Of a stretch of DNA of 64,000 bases, positions 3,473 to 59,833 are shown piece after piece. The translations under genes were made by a program, and so were the position numbers. Position 1 is the stretch's first letter. The number at the start of each line of letters is the position of its first letter. The notes under the pieces are model-generated. The model was not told the origin of the DNA, ran no database searches, and saw only the letters and a list, made by a program, of their open reading frames with translations. Source of the DNA: Octopus vulgaris (Eukaryota); the NCBI GenBank assembly GCA_951406725.2, contig OX597825.1:71982001-72046000 (forward strand), written 5' to 3'.

Positions 3473-3821
3473 GGAGTTGAATACTGGTTTGGTAATATTT
3501 TTTTATCAACCTCGAACAGATGAAAGACAAAGCTTATTTCGGTAGGATTTGAACTCAGAGCACATAGAGCCGTTGCAAAATGCCGCACGATATTTTCTAT
3601 CCTACTATGTAATGCCTCTGATAATTCACTCGCCTGTAATTGATTTATGTTTGAAGCTCTCCCCCCTTCCCCATCTCCCACACACATAAACACACTAAAG
3701 ACGACGACTAGCTGGCAGAGTCAGTACAGCGTTGGACAGAGTGTCTTACGGCATTTCTTATGGCGCTAAGGCAACAGTTTTAGAGAGAGGACTTGATTAA
3801 TTATACTGATCCCCAGAACTA

Positions 3822-4300
3822 TTGGGTTGTCCGGAAAGTTCGTGCCGATTTTTAAAAGAAAGAAAAAAGGTCAATAAATACTTGCCATTACATTTTTTAT
3901 CAACCAAATATGAACCATTTTCTTGCACAATGCGTCTCCATCTTTCCTTTAACTTGAAAATACGCTCTTCCCAGAATTGAGGTGGTTTCATGGCAAAGAA
4001 TCCATCAAGGTATCTTTTTACGTCATCCAAGGAATTGAAATTTTTACCATTAAGACTATTCTGCAGAGACCTGAATAAGTGGAAATCCGAAGGAGCAATA
4101 TCTGGTGAATATGGAGGGTGGGGTAACACATGCCAGCCGAGCTGCAGCAATTTTTGTCTGGTTCCCAAAGTATCAAGTGCCGAAAATGAACTTTTTATCT
4201 TCCATTTTAAAGGGTTACAGAATTAACACAGGTTATAGGAACATAAACCTTCTTCCACAAAAGGATAGCTTAAACTGTGCTCTAAATGGAGGTGTGGTAA
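3822..4300 (-). mobile_element. Internally deleted mariner (Tc1/mariner DD34D) element
   Basis: ORF 3797-4168 contains HPPYSPDIAPSDFHLF (third D motif); TA then TIR ttgggttgtccggaaagttcg at 3822; frameshifted N-terminus MEDKK(V)HFRHL from ATG at 4205 is joined almost directly to the C-terminus. Confidence 0.88.
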
Positions 4301-4302
4301 AA

Positions 4303-5485
4303 CCCTCTCCAGCACCACCCTCCTCACCGGCACCCATCATCAACCCTATCACATCACCGACTCCTTCACCTGCACCTCTACCACTACCATCTCTGTACAT
4401 CGGACAAACGGGACGCCGCTTGGCTGACCTGTTCGCGGAACACCTCCGAGACATCCACCTCGGCAATGACACCCCGGTCTCACGCCATTTCCCCTCAACC
4501 GGTCACTCTTTGCAACACCTGTCCGTGTTCGGATTGTCTTTGCACAGAGGCACAGAGGCCATCCGGACTCCCGTTTGCGCCATGAACAGGGATTAATCTT
4601 CTCTCTTCGCTCATTTGTGCCACAAGAACTCAACTCTCCTCCCTTCTTCATCTAACCCCTCCCCTTGCCCCTCTCCCCCTCCCTCCTACTTCCTCTCACC
4701 CACCTCTCCTCTCTTGCTCCGACTCCTTCTCTTCACCCCACACTCTTTCTCTCTTCTCTCTTACTCTCTTCTCTTATACCCACCTTCCCCTTCCCCTTCA
4801 TCGTCAACCCTCCCTCATAAGCCCACCCCACCCCTACACATTCCTACCTCGCCTTCCCTTCCGTACACCCTCTCCCACATACCCCACCTCTATTCCCACC
4901 CTCTGCTTACCCACAAACCCCACCTCTATCCCTACCCTTTGCCTACCCACATACCCTCAACTCTACCCCAACCCTCAGCCTAAACCACACCCCACTCGTG
5001 CTTCCCCCACTCTCGCCTCCCCGACCTCCCAACAACATCACAACACACCACACTACACCATACCACACAACACATCACATCACAACACACCAACACTCAC
5101 ACACCAGCACTGACCAATTCCCATCCCCACATTTTCATACCTACACATACACACACGCACACGTCAAGATCACCAGCCTTCTTTCACACGCACATACGTA
5201 CTCTCTTACACATACGCGCACCTTCGTTTTGGGATCACGACTACTTTGTTATCTCCCCTACTTCTTAGCTCTCCTGTGTGACCCTTCTGTCCGGCATTCA
5301 CCATGATAGATCGGTAGCCACCACACACATTTTTTTCTCCTTGTTTTTTTTCTGTGTCCCTTTCTGTAGAAGAGCATAAGCTCGAAACGTTAAAGACTTC
5401 TTCAATTCCAGAGCGTTTTACTAATACATCAGTTTGTTTTCTACACCACCTGTCTTCGTCTTTTGTTTTCTTCGTGAATTCTCCC
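4303..5485 (+). mobile_element. Penelope-like element 3' fragment (GIY-YIG endonuclease remnant plus pLTR)
   Basis: SLYIGQTGRRLADLFAEHLRDI (GIY-YIG) in ORF 4105-4596; homologous to 57750-59011; ends in (TA). Confidence 0.88.
5360..5395 (+). ncRNA. Minimal type-I hammerhead-like motif in PLE pLTR (core variant CUGUAGA)
   Basis: cttt-CTGTAGA-a-gagc ataa gctc-GAAAC-GTT-aaag; stem I cttt/aaag. Confidence 0.55.
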
Positions 5486-14769: not shown

Positions 14770-14812
14770 TATGAAAGAATGGAGTTGAACGACTAGTTAA
14801 CAAATATCCTTT

Positions 14813-14897
14813 ATTCTCGACATATGTTTCGAAGGCTGCATATTCCTAATTCCGAAGGAATAAGGAGTACATTATGCAGATTTCTCATCAGGAAAAT
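14813..14897 (-). ncRNA. Type-I hammerhead ribozyme, canonical core
   Basis: Minus strand: attttc-CTGATGA-gaa..ctgcata..tatgcag..ttc-GAAAC ATAT GTC-gagaat; predicted cut between 14819 and 14818; cassette 14767-14918 lies between (TA)n runs. Confidence 0.88.
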
Positions 14898-14916
14898 CAA
14901 GGAACTTATCAAGGAA

Positions 14917-14990
<74 letters not shown>

Positions 14991-15026
14991 GATATATAGA
15001 TATATATATATATATGTATATATATA

Positions 15027-15210
15027 ACGGGAAAGTTTACGAAAATAAACAAAAGACGAAGGCAGGTGGAGTACAAACAAACAAATGTATTAGTATGGTG
15101 CTCAGAAATAGAAATAGAAAAATTCTTTTACGTTTCGAGCCTACGCTCTTCGACAGAAAGATACACAGAAAAAAACAAGGAGAAAAACAAGGAGAGAAAA
15201 AAATGAGAGA
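15027..15210 (-). mobile_element. Solo PLE pLTR fragment containing a minimal HHR-like motif (15124-15161)
   Basis: Near-identical to the reverse complement of 58835-59011; tcttt-CTGTCGA-agagcgtaggctc-GAAAC GTA-aaaga. Confidence 0.8.
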
Positions 15211-15254
15211 AAAAAAGGACCTCTCCTACACGGATCAAAGTGACTTTGTTATTG

Positions 15255-15304
<50 letters not shown>

Positions 15305-18055: not shown

Positions 18056-19470
18056 CCCCTTGACGAAGGATTCGAAGGATGTGAAACTCTGCTCCGGTTT
18101 TTTTATCTTATAAGGCCACACAAACACAAAAGTGCCAACGAGCTCGCGTCTATTTACGTTCACCGTTACAATAACATCGCGTCGTACATTTACGTCTACC
18201 AGTTTATGAAAACAAATTATGTGAAGCTATTTATCATAATATGATATGCACGAGTTATTCTGCTCAAGTTCAAAAAATAGCTTGCGTATAGTAGAACTCA
18301 AAACACGGTATTATGCAAAGGGACACATCACAGTCCGGACAACGATATCTGGTTTTGCGCCTACGGTGGTGTGAGGTGCATACAACACACTTCCATGCCG
18401 GATTCTGCTTTTTTTTTCCGTTGGCGGTATGAAGCGCAGGAAAATATCCACGTCGGTTCCGAAGCCGGTTTGGAGTCGGTCGAGCGTGAGGATGTCCACG
18501 CCTTCGTTAGTTGGGCAGCTAGGAAACTTCGATAATTTCATTTATCGAGTCCAGTTGCTTCGCCACCCGGCATTCGCCAGATCAGATGTGTGTTCACGAG
18601 TGCCATATCCACAATGTACAAAAATATATATTTTATACCATTTTTCCGAATCTTCGTGCAGATTTGTGCGTGATAGCCAGCTGATCGGATCTATCCACCC
18701 CACTTATTGCTCTGTTGTAGTCCTGTACAACATCGGGTTTTATGATGGGGTCCCCTGCACGATTTCGTTTGCCAGTTTCAGACATTGCAGCAGAATGTAT
18801 CGTACTCAGCATGGTCAGATACTTTCTGTCTCGCCAGACCAACGCCAGGTGACGTCGAACTGTCCGTCGAACGGTATGCAAATTAAGGCGGCGAGCTGGC
18901 AGAAACGTTAGCACGCCGGGCGAAATGCTTTGTGGTATTTCGTCAGCCGCTGCGTTCTGAGTTCAATTTCCGGAGGTTGACTTTGCCTTTCATCCTTTCG
19001 GGGTCGATAAATTAAGTACCAGTTACGCACTGGGGTCGATATAATCGACTTAATCCGTTTGTCTGTCCTTGTTTGTCCTCTCTGTGTTTAGCCCCTTGTG
19101 GTTAGTAAAGAAATAGGTATGCAAATTCTCTTTTCTCAAGTTTCCAGATAGTGGGGCATATTCCTCCTGAAAGCGCGGACCGTCCCACTGGCGTTTGTTC
19201 TCCTGGCCTGCAAGTTGGGACTGGAAAACCAGTTATCCATATAAATGTTATACCCTTTGTCAAACAGTTCGTCATTCAATGGCATGACGACATTAGTTGA
19301 TGCTAGAACGTCCGCGACCCTGTCCTCGCCAGTATATATATTCTATAGTTCCAGGTAAAGCCACGTGCAACACCGGATGACTGACAAACTTTATATACTT
19401 TCACTCCAATGCGCACACGTTTTGTAGGGTTGTACCGTCTGAATCGCAACCGCCCCTTGAATTTCCAGGA
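18056..19470 (-). mobile_element. Decayed piggyBac (PGBD-like) transposon
   Basis: Minus-strand remnants KFKGRLRFRRYNPTKR, FDKGYNIYMDNWFSS and VVQDYNRAISGVDRSDQL; TTAA|CCCC at 18052-18059 is the probable end. Confidence 0.82.
18885..19115 (+). mobile_element. SINE family B inserted into the piggyBac
   Basis: Head aaggcggcgagctggcagaa; direct repeat ggtatgcaaatt at 18873-18884 and 19116-19127. Confidence 0.88.
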
Positions 19471-22012: not shown

Positions 22013-22091
<79 letters not shown>

Positions 22092-22195
22092 ATATTTATG
22101 TGTGATAGATAGATATTGATGTATAGATAGCTGGGTAGATAGACAAAGTGATAAAGTTATTTATGTCTGTAAATTTATATATGTGCATATATACG

Positions 22196-22239
<44 letters not shown>

Positions 22240-22241
22240 TC

Positions 22242-22336
22242 TACGGACGCACGTTTCGAAATCAAGTTTTTAGGAAAGCATAAGAATTAAATATTAAATA
22301 ATTCTACCTTACCCAAACTTCTTTCTCTTCAGCGTA
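22242..22336 (-). ncRNA. Type-I hammerhead ribozyme, canonical core
   Basis: Minus strand: tacg-CTGAAGA-gaaa..aagttt..agaatta..taattct..aaactt..tttc-GAAAC GTGC GTC-cgta; the whole insert 22236-22344 lies between (TA)n. Confidence 0.88.
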
Positions 22337-22343
22337 TTCTACG

Positions 22344-22412
<69 letters not shown>

Positions 22413-22646
22413 CATATATACATATATATATATACACACAAACATACATACATACATATATATATGTAAATACACACGCGCCCACACACACGCACACACA
22501 TATTATTTGTTGATATATATGCGACTCAAGGGCTTCACCCCTCGTGGACTAGCGCAAAACCTATACTCGGGTCACTTATGTATCTAATAATGAACCATTT
22601 AATTTCTAATTTATAAATTGAGATCTATAATTTTATTTTGTGCCAC

Positions 22647-22724
<78 letters not shown>

Positions 22725-34129: not shown

Positions 34130-34194
34130 ACACATATATGTGTGTATATATGTATCAAATGAAATAAAATAAAAAACAGGACACAAATGATGTC

Positions 34195-34282
34195 GCGGTA
34201 CACATGTTTCGAGCTTTATAAAACAACTTATTCTTACATCAATGTATAATCGACATAACAGTTTAAAGCCCTCTTCAGCCGC
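34195..34282 (-). ncRNA. Type-I hammerhead ribozyme, canonical core
   Basis: Minus strand: gcgg-CTGAAGA-gggcttta...taaagctc-GAAAC ATGT GTA-ccgc. Confidence 0.85.
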
Positions 34283-34327
34283 ATGCAAAAGACTTGTATC
34301 ACATTATGAAAGGTTTGAGAAAGGTTT

Positions 34328-34362
<35 letters not shown>

Positions 34363-45430: not shown

Positions 45431-46305
45431 CTATACCGGCAAACCCACCAAGCTTGCTTGGTGAGGAGGGTGTTTATTGGACACTCTGCGGGATGAAAAA
45501 CAAAACATGTCAAAGGGCGGAGGAACTCTTGAGAGTCGACGGCCATCCAATGAATGTGTAATTATATATTTACTGTATATCTGCCTTTTTCTCACTAATT
45601 TTTATATATTGCATATTTTTATAGCTTGCTCATTATATAATTTTTTATATACTTCACATCATATATTTTATGTATATTTTGTATATTAATGTTTTTTTTA
45701 TATATCGTATGTTCTTTTTTTCTCCTTATATCAATCTTATCCAGCTTAAGGCTGTATCATGCGCGGGAACATAAAAATAATCGGACTGAATACCCGATCG
45801 CGCGGTTAAATCATTGGGAGTGAAGGACTCCTAGCCTTTGTTAGGGCATCCTTGTAGGAGATGGTAACTCAAGTAACTGGGATAACTCCGACATAAAACC
45901 TGCGGCTCAGTGGTTACCGATGATGTTGACTTGTTCTTCTTTTCGGATTATGGCTGCTGTTGCTTAGTGAGTGGGATTGACTCAGTGTACAGTCTTTCCT
46001 CACTTAAAAAAAAATCTTCTTGCACAGGCATTGCACAATAACAACATTGATTCATTGATTGATTGATTGATTAAATTTATTGACTAATTCATGGTTATTG
46101 ATAGTGCTGTGAGTCTCAACTGAATGGCTGGCTGTAGCCTTAAAAAATGCAAACAATCAATGATGTACCAAAACAGTATAAAAATAAATCGCAGTAAGGA
46201 CTCTGGAACCACATCAGATGAAAGTGTCTGGCCCGGCAGGGGCTCCAGAGCATCAGAGTTGAACCCGGCCGTCATCATGCTACTGAGATAGAACAAAAAA
46301 AAATA

Positions 46306-47715
46306 TTGAATATTGGCTGTTGGAATGTAAGGACACTGTTTGACCGCAAGTCCTATGAATGTCCTGAAAGAAGGACTGCGCTTGTTGCGAAGGAGCTTCA
46401 ACGCTATGATCTTGACATTGTTGCTTTATCTGAGACGAGATTAACTGGAGATTGTCATCTTACAGAATCTTGTGAAAAATATACATTCTTTTGGAAAGGG
46501 AGGAATGAAGAGTTTAGAGGAGAGGCTGGAGTGGCATTTGCTGTTAAGACCACTCTTGTGGACAAGTTGGAAGAATTCCCAATCGGAATTAATGAGCATC
46601 TTATGTCCATGAGAATTCCTTTGGCTAAAAGAAATTATATGACCTTGGTGAGTGTGTATGCTCCAACTATGTGCTATACTGATGACGAAAAAGATTCTTT
46701 CTACCATGCTTTGAAGGGCATTATAAGAACTATCCCTCGGGCAGACAAAGTCATCGTACTGGGTGACTTTAATGCTAGAGTAGGTAGGGATTTTAACACA
46801 TGGACTGTAATTGGAAAGCATGGGATGGGAAAGGGTAATAGTAATGGCATGCTTTTGCTGCAGATGTGTGAGGAGCTGTGTCTGTGTGTTACCAACACTA
46901 TGTTTCAACAAGAGAATAAGTTTAAGACCATATGGATGCACCCTGCATCTAAAGAATGGCATATTCTGGATTACATCCTTGTTAGGGTGCGTGACAGACA
47001 AGATGTGCAGTGTGTTCGTGTTCTTCGTGGAGCTGAGTGTTGGACTGACCACCGCCTAGTACGTGCAAAAGTGAAATTAGTCACAAAATATAAAATCCGG
47101 GCTGCAGGGATTTACCCTGCCTAAAAGACTGAATGTTGATCGTCTTAGGTGTAATAGTGTGAAGAGAAGTTTACTGCTGCAGATATTGGGGAGGATTGAC
47201 CGACCCTTAAAAAGTCAGTTTATGATATAGGCAAGAAAGTTCTGGGATTGATACAAAGAAAGCATCAAGATTCGTTTAAAGAAAATTATGAACATATAGA
47301 TGATTTATTGGCTGATAAAAGATGTACTTTGTCACACTATTTGTCAGCAAAGCCACAGGAAAGGGAAGTGCTGCATAGGGAACTCAAGGATGTAAAATCA
47401 CGTGTGAGGCGAAGGCTCTCTCAGATGAGGGATACGTGGTGGAGTAAGAGGGCTGATGAGATACAGGTGGCGTCGGATTCCAATAACACAAAGCTGTTGT
47501 ATGGTCCCTTGCGAGAAGTTTATGGACCGACGTCTTCTCTGATGACACCACTTCGAAGCAGGGATGATAAAGAACTTCTTCGTGATCCACAAGGAATTCT
47601 GCGAAGGTGGCAAGAACACTTTGATGAACTTTTGAATCAGCAGTCTGTAGTTAGTGAGGATGTTCTCAATCTCATCCCTGGATTGCCCGTGAAGGCAGCA
47701 CTCGCAAAACCACTA
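46306..47715 (+). pseudogene. RTE-clade LINE ORF: APE endonuclease domain and linker, frameshifted and truncated before the RT
   Basis: NIGCWNVRTL, DIVALSETR, VSVYAPT, VLGDFNARVG, HILDYILV, WTDHRLV; continues in 47248-47715 (RRWQEHFDELLN). Confidence 0.93.
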
Positions 47716-47734
47716 AAGTTATTTAATAATAATA

Positions 47735-48202
47735 ATAAAAGATGGGCTACAGCAAATATTCTGCTCAATACCACAGATTTGCTTGTCAGTTGTTTGACCT
47801 TAATCAGTTGAGCATGTCCCTTTGTGGCTGACGATATGTGTATCTCTGATCATGAGCAGAAGTAGTGGGGGAGCATCATGGCCATGTGTTGAGAGGGATT
47901 CATTGGGGTTTGAATAATTCACATCTGGAAACATGAGTGTTTCGTTCAACATCCTTAAACAATCCTTATTCAGGGACCTTTTGAGCGGGATGGGCTACTC
48001 GACCAGAAAAAAATATTAACTGGACCCCACCTGCAAGGTCATGTGCTGTTTATCATGATATGAAATCACCATGTTGCGCCCATATGGTTGTGATGCATGT
48101 GCCTGGTGTACCCTTATCAGACGGGTTACCATGATGGGTATACTGGGCTTCGTATATTTTACCCCAGTGTCACTTTGATGGCATGCACTGCTCACACACT
48201 CA
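47735..48202. mobile_element. Unclassified (TAA)n-flanked interspersed repeat
   Basis: Complex 470-bp block bounded on both sides by (TAA)n; it truncates the RTE element. Confidence 0.5.
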
Positions 48203-56787: not shown

Positions 56788-59011
56788 TATATACCGTCAT
56801 CCCTCACCACGAAGGATTGCGGGCACTTCAACACTTTCTCGACCTCCGCCCCAACCCCGAACCCGACACCTCCACACTCATTCGTCTGGCCGAACTTGTC
56901 CTTTCTCTTAACTGCTTCTCGTTCGCGGGCGAGTTCTACCAACAGTTCTCGGGAGTGGCCATGGGAACGTGAATGGGCTCCAACTATGCGAACCTGTTCG
57001 TTGGCTATGTTGAGGCCCAAATATTCTCTAGTTTCACTGGTCCCACTCCCGAACTATACGGTCGTTCATTGACGACATTATCGGTGCCACCTCACTCTCC
57101 CGTGAACATCTAGACTCCTTCCTCTCTTTCGTTCAATCCTTTCATCCTGCCCTCCACTTCACCTGCACTATCTCCAACACCTCTGTCTCCTTCCTCGACA
57201 TTTCAGTCAGCATTCATCACTTCACTTTTACCACCTCCATTCACTACAAACACACAGACTCACACACATACCTAAACTTCTCTTCCTCCGACCCCAAACA
57301 CTCTAAGCTTTCCATCCCCTATTCCCAATTCCTCCGTCTACGTAGGCTCTGTAGTGACGACCATGACTTTGAGACTCAGTCTCAACTCATGGTTCGCCAC
57401 TTCATCCTACGTGGATACCCCCTCACCACTATCCACACCGCCCTTGCCAGAGCTCGTTCCGTAGACCGTGCATCTGCTCTCTCCCCCCGAACCCGCTCTG
57501 CAGTCTCCCACCTCCCTTTTCCCCTCACTTACCACCCCACCACCCTACCTCTCCAACGCACCATTCTTCGAGCTTTCCGGTATCTCCAGTCCGACCCGTC
57601 CACTTCATACCTCTTCCCTAACCGAACCCCCCTTCCTTCAAACGAGCCCATAACCTATGAGACCTCTTAGTCCACAGCTTCTTCCCTGACCCTACCTCCC
57701 AGCCTGGCTCGTTCCTCTGCTCCCGCCCACGTTGCCGCACATGCCCTTACCTCTCCAACACCACCCTCCTCACCGGCACCCATCATCGACCCTATCGCAT
57801 CATCGACTCCTTCACCTGCACCTCCAGCAATATCATCTATTGCATCTCCTGCTCTCTCTGCCATTCCCTGTACATCGAACAAACGGGACGCCGCTTGGCT
57901 GACCGGTTCGCAGAACACCTCCGAGACATCCGCTTCGCCAATGACAGACCAGCCTCACGCCATTTCCGCTCCACCGTCACTCCTTGCAACACCTGTCTGT
58001 ATTCGGATTGTCCTTGCACAGAGGTCATCCGGATTCCCGCTTGCGCCGTGAACAGGGATTAATCTTCTCTCTTCGCTCTTTTACGCCATTTGGGCTCAAC
58101 TCTCCCCCCTTTTCATCTAACCTCCTCCCGACTCCTACTTCTCCTCAGTCCTTCATCTTTTCACCCCTACTCCCTTTCCCTCTTCTTCCCTTCTTTCCCT
58201 TCTTCCCCCTTCTTCCCTCTTATTTCTTCTTCCCTCTTCCCCTTCTCTCTTTCTCCCTGCTCCCTCACTCCCCTTCTCTCCCCTCCTCTCCTCCTCCTCT
58301 CCCTACCACTCCCCTCTTCCCCCTCCCCTCCTCCCTTTCTCTTCTCTCCCCTTTCACTCTCCCCACAACCTCCACTTTACCCCAGCCCCCAGCCGAACCC
58401 ACACCCCACATGGGCTTTCCCCCCTCTCACCCCCACCTCCCCACAACATCACACCACAATACACTACACCATACGACATTACACATCACATCACAACACA
58501 CCACCCACAGCACACCGCCCACACACACCATCCCCAAATCTTTACACCTACACCCACATACACATACCATATCACAACACACCACCCAAACACACATCTC
58601 CATATCTCCACACCCACACATACATACATACACACGTCCAGACCACCAGCTCTCTTTCACACGCACATACTCTCTTATACACACACGCACATTCGTTCGT
58701 GTTGGGGCCACCTTCGTTTTGGAAGTCACTTGACCCTGTTATCTCCCCTACTATCCCTCTAGCGTCTAACGTCTGACCTCTGACCTCTGCCTGAAGTCAG
58801 AACGCCATGATAGACCGTTAGCTCCTACACGCATTTTTTTTTCTCCTTGTTTCTCTCCTTGTTTCTTTTCTGTGTATCTTTCTGTCGAAGAGCGTAGGCT
58901 CGAAACGTAAAACACTTGTTCTATTTCTATTCCTGAGCGCCATACTAATACATTTGTTTGTTTGTACTCCACCTGCCTTCATCTTTTGTTTATTTTCGTA
59001 AACATTCCCGT
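56788..59011 (+). mobile_element. 5'-truncated Penelope-like element (RT, GIY-YIG, pLTR) inserted in (TA)n
   Basis: YTVIPHHEGL, FYQQFSGVAMGT*MG..YANLF, (R)FIDDI, IPYSQFLRLRRLCS, NIIYCISC..YIEQTGRRL; stops and frameshifts; pLTR with HHR-like motif at 58879-58912. Confidence 0.93.
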
Positions 59012-59043
59012 TATATATATATTTATGTAAATGTATATATATG

Positions 59044-59170
<127 letters not shown>

Positions 59171-59216
59171 TATATATATATATATATGTATATATATACA
59201 TATATATATATATATA

Positions 59217-59833
59217 TTGGTGAAATTAATTAATAACTAATTGATTTTACCCTTAATTATTGATAATATAATTCCTTTCTCCCTGCTCTTTTACTGCGGT
59301 TCTCACCGTTATAGTATGTTTACTAGATAACTCACGTGGGTGGAAGCGGGAAAAACATGAATCTTCACTTGTACTTTTTGAATTTGCTAGCACTGGCAGT
59401 TTGAAGATGTGTATGTCTGAGGTGATTCATTATCGGACGGGTATGTTCATTTTTTTAGTGCTTTCAAATCCAAAATTAAGAAATGTTGAGCTGACGAAGG
59501 AAATGCTGAGTTTTATTTCGGCTAATCTAGAAACGTGACGTTCTCAAATAATCTTTGTACTTGTGATATTTTACTGTTTTCCCTCCATATCTTCGTGAGT
59601 TATTTTTGAGTAAACACTATCTGGGAGACTTTTTCTTAAAGTAGTGGAAATAGCTAAAAAACTTTTTGGCTGCTATTTCTAATAATTTCAGTATGTGGCA
59701 AAGTAATTTATTTTACTAAGCCCTAATTATATAACGTAATATTTTGAATACGCCTTGAATGGTCCTTTTACATACTGAACACTACTTGGTGAAATTAATT
59801 AATAACTAATTGATTTTACCCTTAATTATTGAT
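59217..59833 (+). mobile_element. 569-bp-period element with 48-bp direct terminal repeats and an internal hammerhead (retrozyme-like)
   Basis: ttggtgaaattaattaataactaattgattttacccttaattattgat at 59217-59264 and 59786-59833; (TA)n on both sides. Confidence 0.8.
59486..59547 (+). ncRNA. Type-I hammerhead ribozyme (CUGACGA core, GUU cleavage)
   Basis: ttgag-CTGACGA-agga..gctgag..ttcggc..tcta-GAAACG TGA CGTT-ctcaa. Confidence 0.72.

Follow-up and report, generated by a model that had tools for sequence, protein, structure and literature searches.

The window analysed here, a 64-kb stretch of a 2.8-Gb genome, carries a hammerhead ribozyme motif in 109 bp between two (TA)n runs, and the locus raises the question of whether such a piece moves by itself, is left over from something larger, or cuts the RNA of its host. 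We consider it about 80% probable that the insert represents one copy, truncated and two-armed, of a non-LTR retrozyme with a 595-bp unit, likely placed into (TA)n by a Penelope-like reverse transcriptase (RT), and that its lone hammerhead is inactive, as predicted. It looks like ordinary transposon debris, not a tiny mobile unit.

The insert and its surroundings

The insert (22236-22344) is exactly the stretch that is not TA, as a sequence-only reading had delimited it, and the minus strand carries a type I hammerhead of 95 nt in which every part named by this reading could be located. The parts are given below by position in the window; u numbers refer to the 595-bp repeat unit described in the next section and are counted from the base after the predicted cut (u1).

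22200..22235, no strand: (TA)18 target microsatellite, 36 nt, adjoining the 3' end of the long arm; position 22235 can be assigned to either the unit or the TA run
22236..22336, minus: long arm, u504-u595 plus u1-u10 of the 595-bp unit (98.9% over u504-595)
22242..22336, minus: type I hammerhead motif, 95 nt
22336-22333, minus: helix I 5' strand UACG, 4 nt (family: 6 nt)
22332-22326, minus: catalytic core CUGAAGA (C3-A9)
22325-22258, minus: stem II, long and AU-rich, 68 nt
22257-22255, minus: GAA
22254-22247, minus: helix III, self-complementary octamer ACGUGCGU
22246, minus: C17, with predicted cleavage between 22246 and 22245
22245-22242, minus: helix I 3' strand CGUA
22337..22344, plus: short inverted arm, u501-u508
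22334-22345, plus: the same arm as u498-u509, counting a 3-nt overlap with the long arm and one base in common with the TA run
22345..22398, no strand: (TA)27 target microsatellite, 54 nt

The hammerhead is a real feature. It has the conserved type I core CUGANGA...GAAA...UH and three helices, and is open at helix I. A descriptor for type I hammerheads that asks for a self-complementary octamer in helix III, composed after the motif had been seen, matches three sites in the window and none in 200 versions of it made by local doublet shuffling, so the motif is not a chance occurrence. Across the full Rfam model RF00163 (Hammerhead_1) an alignment is obtained for the core, helix I and the short helix III, with 17.9 bits (E 0.046 on 131 bases); the long stem II, treated in the alignment as an insertion, and the shortened helix I keep this below the gathering score, which is 34. 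In an Rfam scan of the whole window the motif is not among the 150 of 240 matches listed, most of which are simple-repeat miRNA look-alikes.

Two features were absent from the sequence-only description. The 14 bases beyond the hammerhead include, outermost on its 5' side, the 8-12-nt inverted arm, which is a piece of the same 595-bp repeat in reverse and shortens helix I from 6 to 4 bp; three bases at the arm junction can be assigned to either arm and form a clean overlap. The second is helix III, which is of the short palindromic dimer type. The A-run in stem II of the long arm has one A fewer than the family unit, a deletion that recurs in one other locus (L002) and in none of the 84 hammerheads of loci L033-L088.

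The window holds three lone hammerheads from three families, and the two others are likewise short pieces of longer copies. One is a type I motif in about 149 bp between TA runs (14772-14920, minus strand), and its 5' end carries a 12-bp tandem duplication. A 137-bp stretch of it has 100% matches at 40 or more places; all 20 of these that were fetched reach further upstream, and in L234 and L246 a GIY-YIG-like reading frame lies upstream, on the same strand. Given these frames and the longer copies, 14772-14920 likely forms the 3' end of a Penelope-like element (PLE) family that is very young. The other lone type I hammerhead (34160-34328, minus strand) belongs to an older family, is 87-91% identical to other copies and, compared with them, is internally deleted just upstream of helix I. 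Broken pieces of PLE RT and of Cys-rich linker/GIY-YIG, which we take to be Neptune-like by their motifs, lie at 57032-58059 and 4075-4593 (both plus strand), and the PLE endonuclease fragment has 16326 first-look candidates in the genome. Another TA-flanked repeat is present in two copies (15026-15260 and 58818-59225), the former with a hammerhead-like stretch on its minus strand (GAAGAG...CUCGAAACG) that has no canonical CUGA in front. Further pieces are decayed piggyBac-like transposase remnants (18273-19342, minus; Pfam DDE_Tnp_1_7), a LINE endonuclease region (46222-47808, plus; Pfam Exo_endo_phos) and a fragment that by its motif is presumably mariner-like (3797-4222, minus).

The 595-bp repeat family

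A genome search with the insert gave 1089 first-look candidates. Among the 40 other matches listed, all 40 cover only bases 10-109 of the query, at 98-99% identity, and many are spaced 593-596 bp apart. The underlying unit has a period of 594-596 bp, runs head to tail with one hammerhead per unit and reaches three or more hammerheads in a row. Its 18-nt core/helix I piece has 278 exact copies in the genome, and family copies are spread over many contigs. Judged by its identity of about 98-99%, the family is young. No ORF of at least 200 aa was traced to the unit and no LTR architecture was seen in it; as a dispersed, non-coding tandem repeat whose units, a few hundred bp long, each bear a type I hammerhead, the parent belongs with the non-LTR retrozymes.

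None of the runs containing unit sequence is recorded as RNA. Contigs of four runs guessed to be RNA cover pieces of the unit and are silent on strand, ends, circles, level and DNA content; in three of the four, most carry a variant in which helix III is a perfect palindrome. This variant is also found in 16 of 130 anchor matches of the 595-bp family, from loci that overlap. Our literature search found no paper on the family. The supplements of PMC13282606 may hold the unit as an unnamed consensus, and the main text of that paper nowhere mentions hammerhead, ribozyme or retrozyme. At two places (G000:C15:63585063-63599056 and G000:C2:199953500-199967700) a whole complex insertion is present twice with the same junctions, about 10 kb and about 8 kb apart, respectively; these duplicates were copied together with their flanks, by segmental or assembly duplication.

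A sister retrozyme family (L124-L143) has a 586-bp unit with 103 exact matches, arrays of at least five units and 542 of 598 alignment columns identical to the family unit. Its hammerhead differs in two pairs of helix I (U-A to C-G and A-U to G-U), in one base pair of stem II (A-U to G-C), at the free position 7 and in helix III, which is a perfect palindrome. The changes in helix I, the stem II pair and helix III all keep pairing, and the family's hammerhead motif appears to be under selection.

The ends of the copies were described from the first 100 of the 278 core matches (contigs C1-C5), grouped into 56 insertions, with BLAST pieces shorter than 28 nt or at most 85% identical and clusters more than 200 bp from the main one left out of the end counts. 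The insertions measure 111-2494 bp (median 829), 26 of the 56 are laid out head to head, and TA-like sequence adjoins at least one side of 51 and both sides of 32. Their 5' ends are scattered. The outer 3' ends (n = 82) fall at u185-207 (47) and u288-312 (23), and the remaining 12 are off-site and joined straight to TA. The window's insert has neither end in these preferred zones, its one unusual trait, which is met with in 5 of the 56 sampled insertions and in one of the 26 two-armed ones (L056). Two-armed inserts of 78, 118 and 136 bp are present in the family, and the insert's inverted arm is the family's usual head-to-head layout in miniature.

The exact u197-(TA)n junction occurs 250 times in the genome. 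The first 30 insertions anchored at it span 26 bp to over 1518 bp, three of them shorter than 109 bp (26, 78 and 103 bp). Seventeen have no whole hammerhead (not counting L093, a multi-unit insertion that failed the hammerhead regular expression), so the ribozyme is unnecessary in an inserted copy. At the cleavage site there is no accumulation of 5' ends: five places have u1 not preceded by C and none is a clean truncation, so the ends give no sign of in vivo cutting or of circular templates.

The region from u70/100 to u300 is common to at least two other repeat families at 70-80% identity (about 200 nt, u100-300). Copies of these relatives (L022:833-1162, L156:397-584, L174-L233, L198:1420-2201) stop at about the same two places and make head-to-head pairs. 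By this sequence likeness, the region is a candidate module for RT recognition and start. A 72% relative of u106-u293 that ends near the second preferred end lies in the window itself (59640-59830, plus strand).

Origin of the insert and the state of its ribozyme

In the history that we favour, adjacent units would pair through the palindromic helix III and form a double hammerhead, which is predicted to cut multimeric transcripts to unit length. A PLE endonuclease may cut both strands within (TA)n, and both DNA ends would prime cDNA on tandem or circular RNA, usually at about u197 and about u300, for which the twin priming of L1 offers an analogy; the two cDNAs would be joined through microhomology. 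For the insert, both primings would have been off-site, at u10-11 and u508-509, each with a T common to the TA run, and the cDNAs would have stopped after about 100 and about 10 nt and been joined through 3 nt. The hammerhead would be a passenger in this insertion. As the insert has neither a partner unit nor u100-300, where insertions usually start, its further movement is unlikely.

Across the family we find 5' truncation, inverted arms, preferred internal 3' ends and a microsatellite target. This footprint fits published PLE insertions, from which we infer PLE-type copying. The sequence-only proposal of a minimal truncation product of a PLE-type RT is thus supported in its truncation and likely in its RT step. 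Neither the insert nor the unit contains an ORF with RT and GIY-YIG, and none is joined to the unit in the loci that were fetched. None of the 30 endonuclease loci examined (one PLE family, 30 of 150 listed) has a linked pLTR; the one hit (L156) belongs to a different tandem family. Where PLE fragments lie close to related copies, TA runs or simple repeats separate the two. Searches for a parent PLE with the window's endonuclease fragment, a 78-81% relative and the L156 piece led to other non-coding families and to no parent, and the 30 PLE loci and 60 related-repeat loci gave no link between unit sequence and an autonomous pLTR.

The complete catalytic core and the clean TA flanks could speak for a different suggestion of the sequence-only reading, that the 109-bp piece is one of the smallest mobile units, transcribed and re-inserted as such. 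However, searches of the genome (with exact-match patterns, which would miss mutated daughters) find the piece's 3' junction once and its inverted junction once, both in the insert itself, and the other sampled insertions, all 55 of the TA-type or longer ones and one 111-bp piece, are bounded elsewhere. The top matches of the insert search all stop at query base 10, the piece lacks u100-300, where 70 of the 82 insertion ends lie, and a single hammerhead is unable to release unit-length RNA. Family insertions that are shorter carry no hammerhead, and with one hammerhead and 109 of 595 bp the locus is no active retrozyme. A minimal mobile unit is refuted in the present assembly, which has no same-boundary copies, and we give it next to no credence. 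Scarcely more credible is an assembly or sequencing artefact behind the scrambled end at this TA-flanked repeat: contigs of four public runs on 22090-22660 bridge neither junction, in a comparison that skipped flanking repeats, but inverted arms of all sizes are regular in the family and the junction has its clean 3-nt overlap.

It is also conceivable, if unlikely, that a longer insertion with normal ends was trimmed later, by deletion or by slippage and re-cutting in the (TA)n flanks, and left only its centre. Solo pLTRs are in some cases ascribed to deletion in the available part of PMC3846280. Both ends of the insert lie outside the preferred zones, and L014 and L015 have a perfect head-to-head junction at u496, a few bases from the insert's inversion point, where loss between two 3-nt repeats would yield the insert's junction. 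Yet the flanks hold no unit remnant elsewhere, the insert is young, being one indel from the family, and off-site 3' ends joined directly to TA are found in other copies (the 12 of 82 noted above). Instability of palindromes usually deletes the centre and not both outer ends, which also counts against such trimming.

The state of the ribozyme was approached by secondary-structure prediction, in which tertiary contacts and proteins are ignored. When two family motifs are co-folded unconstrained, the active double hammerhead is the predicted minimum free energy (MFE) structure, as it is for two sister motifs, and in a natural tandem (L024) the inter-unit helix III pairs have predicted probabilities of 0.80-0.95. 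For intact hammerheads of the family, the predicted fold is an active dimer formed between tandem units. In the insert, the inverted arm and UACGCU are predicted to form a hairpin of 6 bp that covers C3, U4 and the helix I strand; the pair probability of helix I is at most 0.008, and C3 is unpaired with a probability of 0.01-0.02. The monomer is 6.3-8.7 kcal/mol away from the hammerhead fold, against 3.6 kcal/mol in a family copy. The folding z-score of the whole insert is unremarkable (-1.21). Its active dimer lies above the MFE by 11.7 kcal/mol with itself and by 6.2 kcal/mol with a family copy, and with the 5' hairpin and the larger of these gaps the active fold is not predicted for it. The lone hammerhead is probably inactive.

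That the insert, if intronic, could cut host pre-mRNA had also been suggested, and it is the folding predictions that disfavour this. Cutting of host RNA appears unlikely because of the predicted misfolding and the missing partner unit. Four of 300 window frames match Pfam, all with transposon domains (DDE_Tnp_1_7 twice, zf-Tnp_2 and Exo_endo_phos), in a scan of stop-to-stop frames of at least 45 aa (299 of 301 past a complexity filter, plus the PLE RT frame) that would miss short or divergent exons and is not proof of an intergenic site. We think it very unlikely that the insert works on host pre-mRNA, whether by itself or with family RNA completing it in trans by way of helix III. Every core nucleotide is intact, the octamer can pair over 8 bp with any family copy (-8.8 kcal/mol), and a PLE protein can aid hammerhead folding (PMC11167929, in its accessible part), but the 5' hairpin hides C3, U4 and helix I, and the active fold is 6.3-8.7 kcal/mol away for the monomer and still 6.2 kcal/mol with a family partner. 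As a long shot, we speculate that lone dimer-type hammerheads, which would sit in TA runs by the hundreds, are half-ribozymes completed in trans by family RNA or PLE protein; in that case, cutting of host transcripts that run through them on the right strand would be confined to the places and times of retrozyme expression.

Comparison with retrozymes and Penelope-like elements

The insert itself matters little, as lone hammerheads from truncated Penelope-type copies have already been published. Its parent family is a modestly useful test system, being young, with a predicted clean inter-unit double hammerhead and the common u100-300 region. The presence of this region in families that end at about the same two places points to an RNA element that a PLE RT would recognise.

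The following comparisons draw on the available portions of the cited sources. Metazoan non-LTR retrozymes (Cervera and de la Pena 2020, PMC7229834; Li, Clavereau and Pollet 2026, 10.64898/2026.07.22.740005) share with the family a non-coding tandem unit with one type I hammerhead each, low GC, the lack of LTR, PBS and PPT, and dispersed monomers and multimers, and the amphibian ones share its dimer-type helix III. The 595-bp unit falls inside the 51-972 bp range of 10.64898/2026.07.22.740005 and exceeds the 170-400 nt RNAs of PMC7229834, with a stem II of 68 nt. The locus, at less than one fifth of a unit, lacks the two units with whole hammerheads by which 10.64898/2026.07.22.740005 defines an active element. 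Head-to-head arms with two preferred (TA)n ends are not described in what these portions of the two sources cover. The 2026 study proposes a PLE origin for its elements and reports cleavage of one of nine dimers tested.

EN+ Penelope-like elements and pLTR hammerheads (PMC4209133, PMC8557442, PMC3846280, PMC11167929) differ from the 595-bp family in that the latter carries neither an RT nor a GIY-YIG ORF, and our searches turned up no parent PLE for it. Its two ends are about 100 nt apart, whereas the PLE tail measures 30-40 bp, and unlike minimal PLE hammerheads the insert has no unpaired base between A9 and G10.1. The purified PLE protein of PMC11167929 acts at AT-rich DNA, where it cuts both target strands and extends them, and starts reverse transcription internally, at two RNA sites; hammerhead cleavage is not needed, and the PAc hammerhead cleaved only with its protein. 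PMC4209133 describes single hammerheads as 'probably related to truncated PLEs' and a single minimal motif as inactive in vitro. The PLE insertions of PMC8557442 show 5' truncation, partial tandems, an inverted 5'-truncated copy and a microsatellite bias, and those of PMC3846280 have features of the same kind. The 595-bp family shares with these elements 5' truncation, partial tandems and inverted 5'-truncated arms, microhomology joins, microsatellite/(TA)n targets and two preferred 3' ends, a palindromic helix III and plentiful lone hammerheads that derive from truncated copies.
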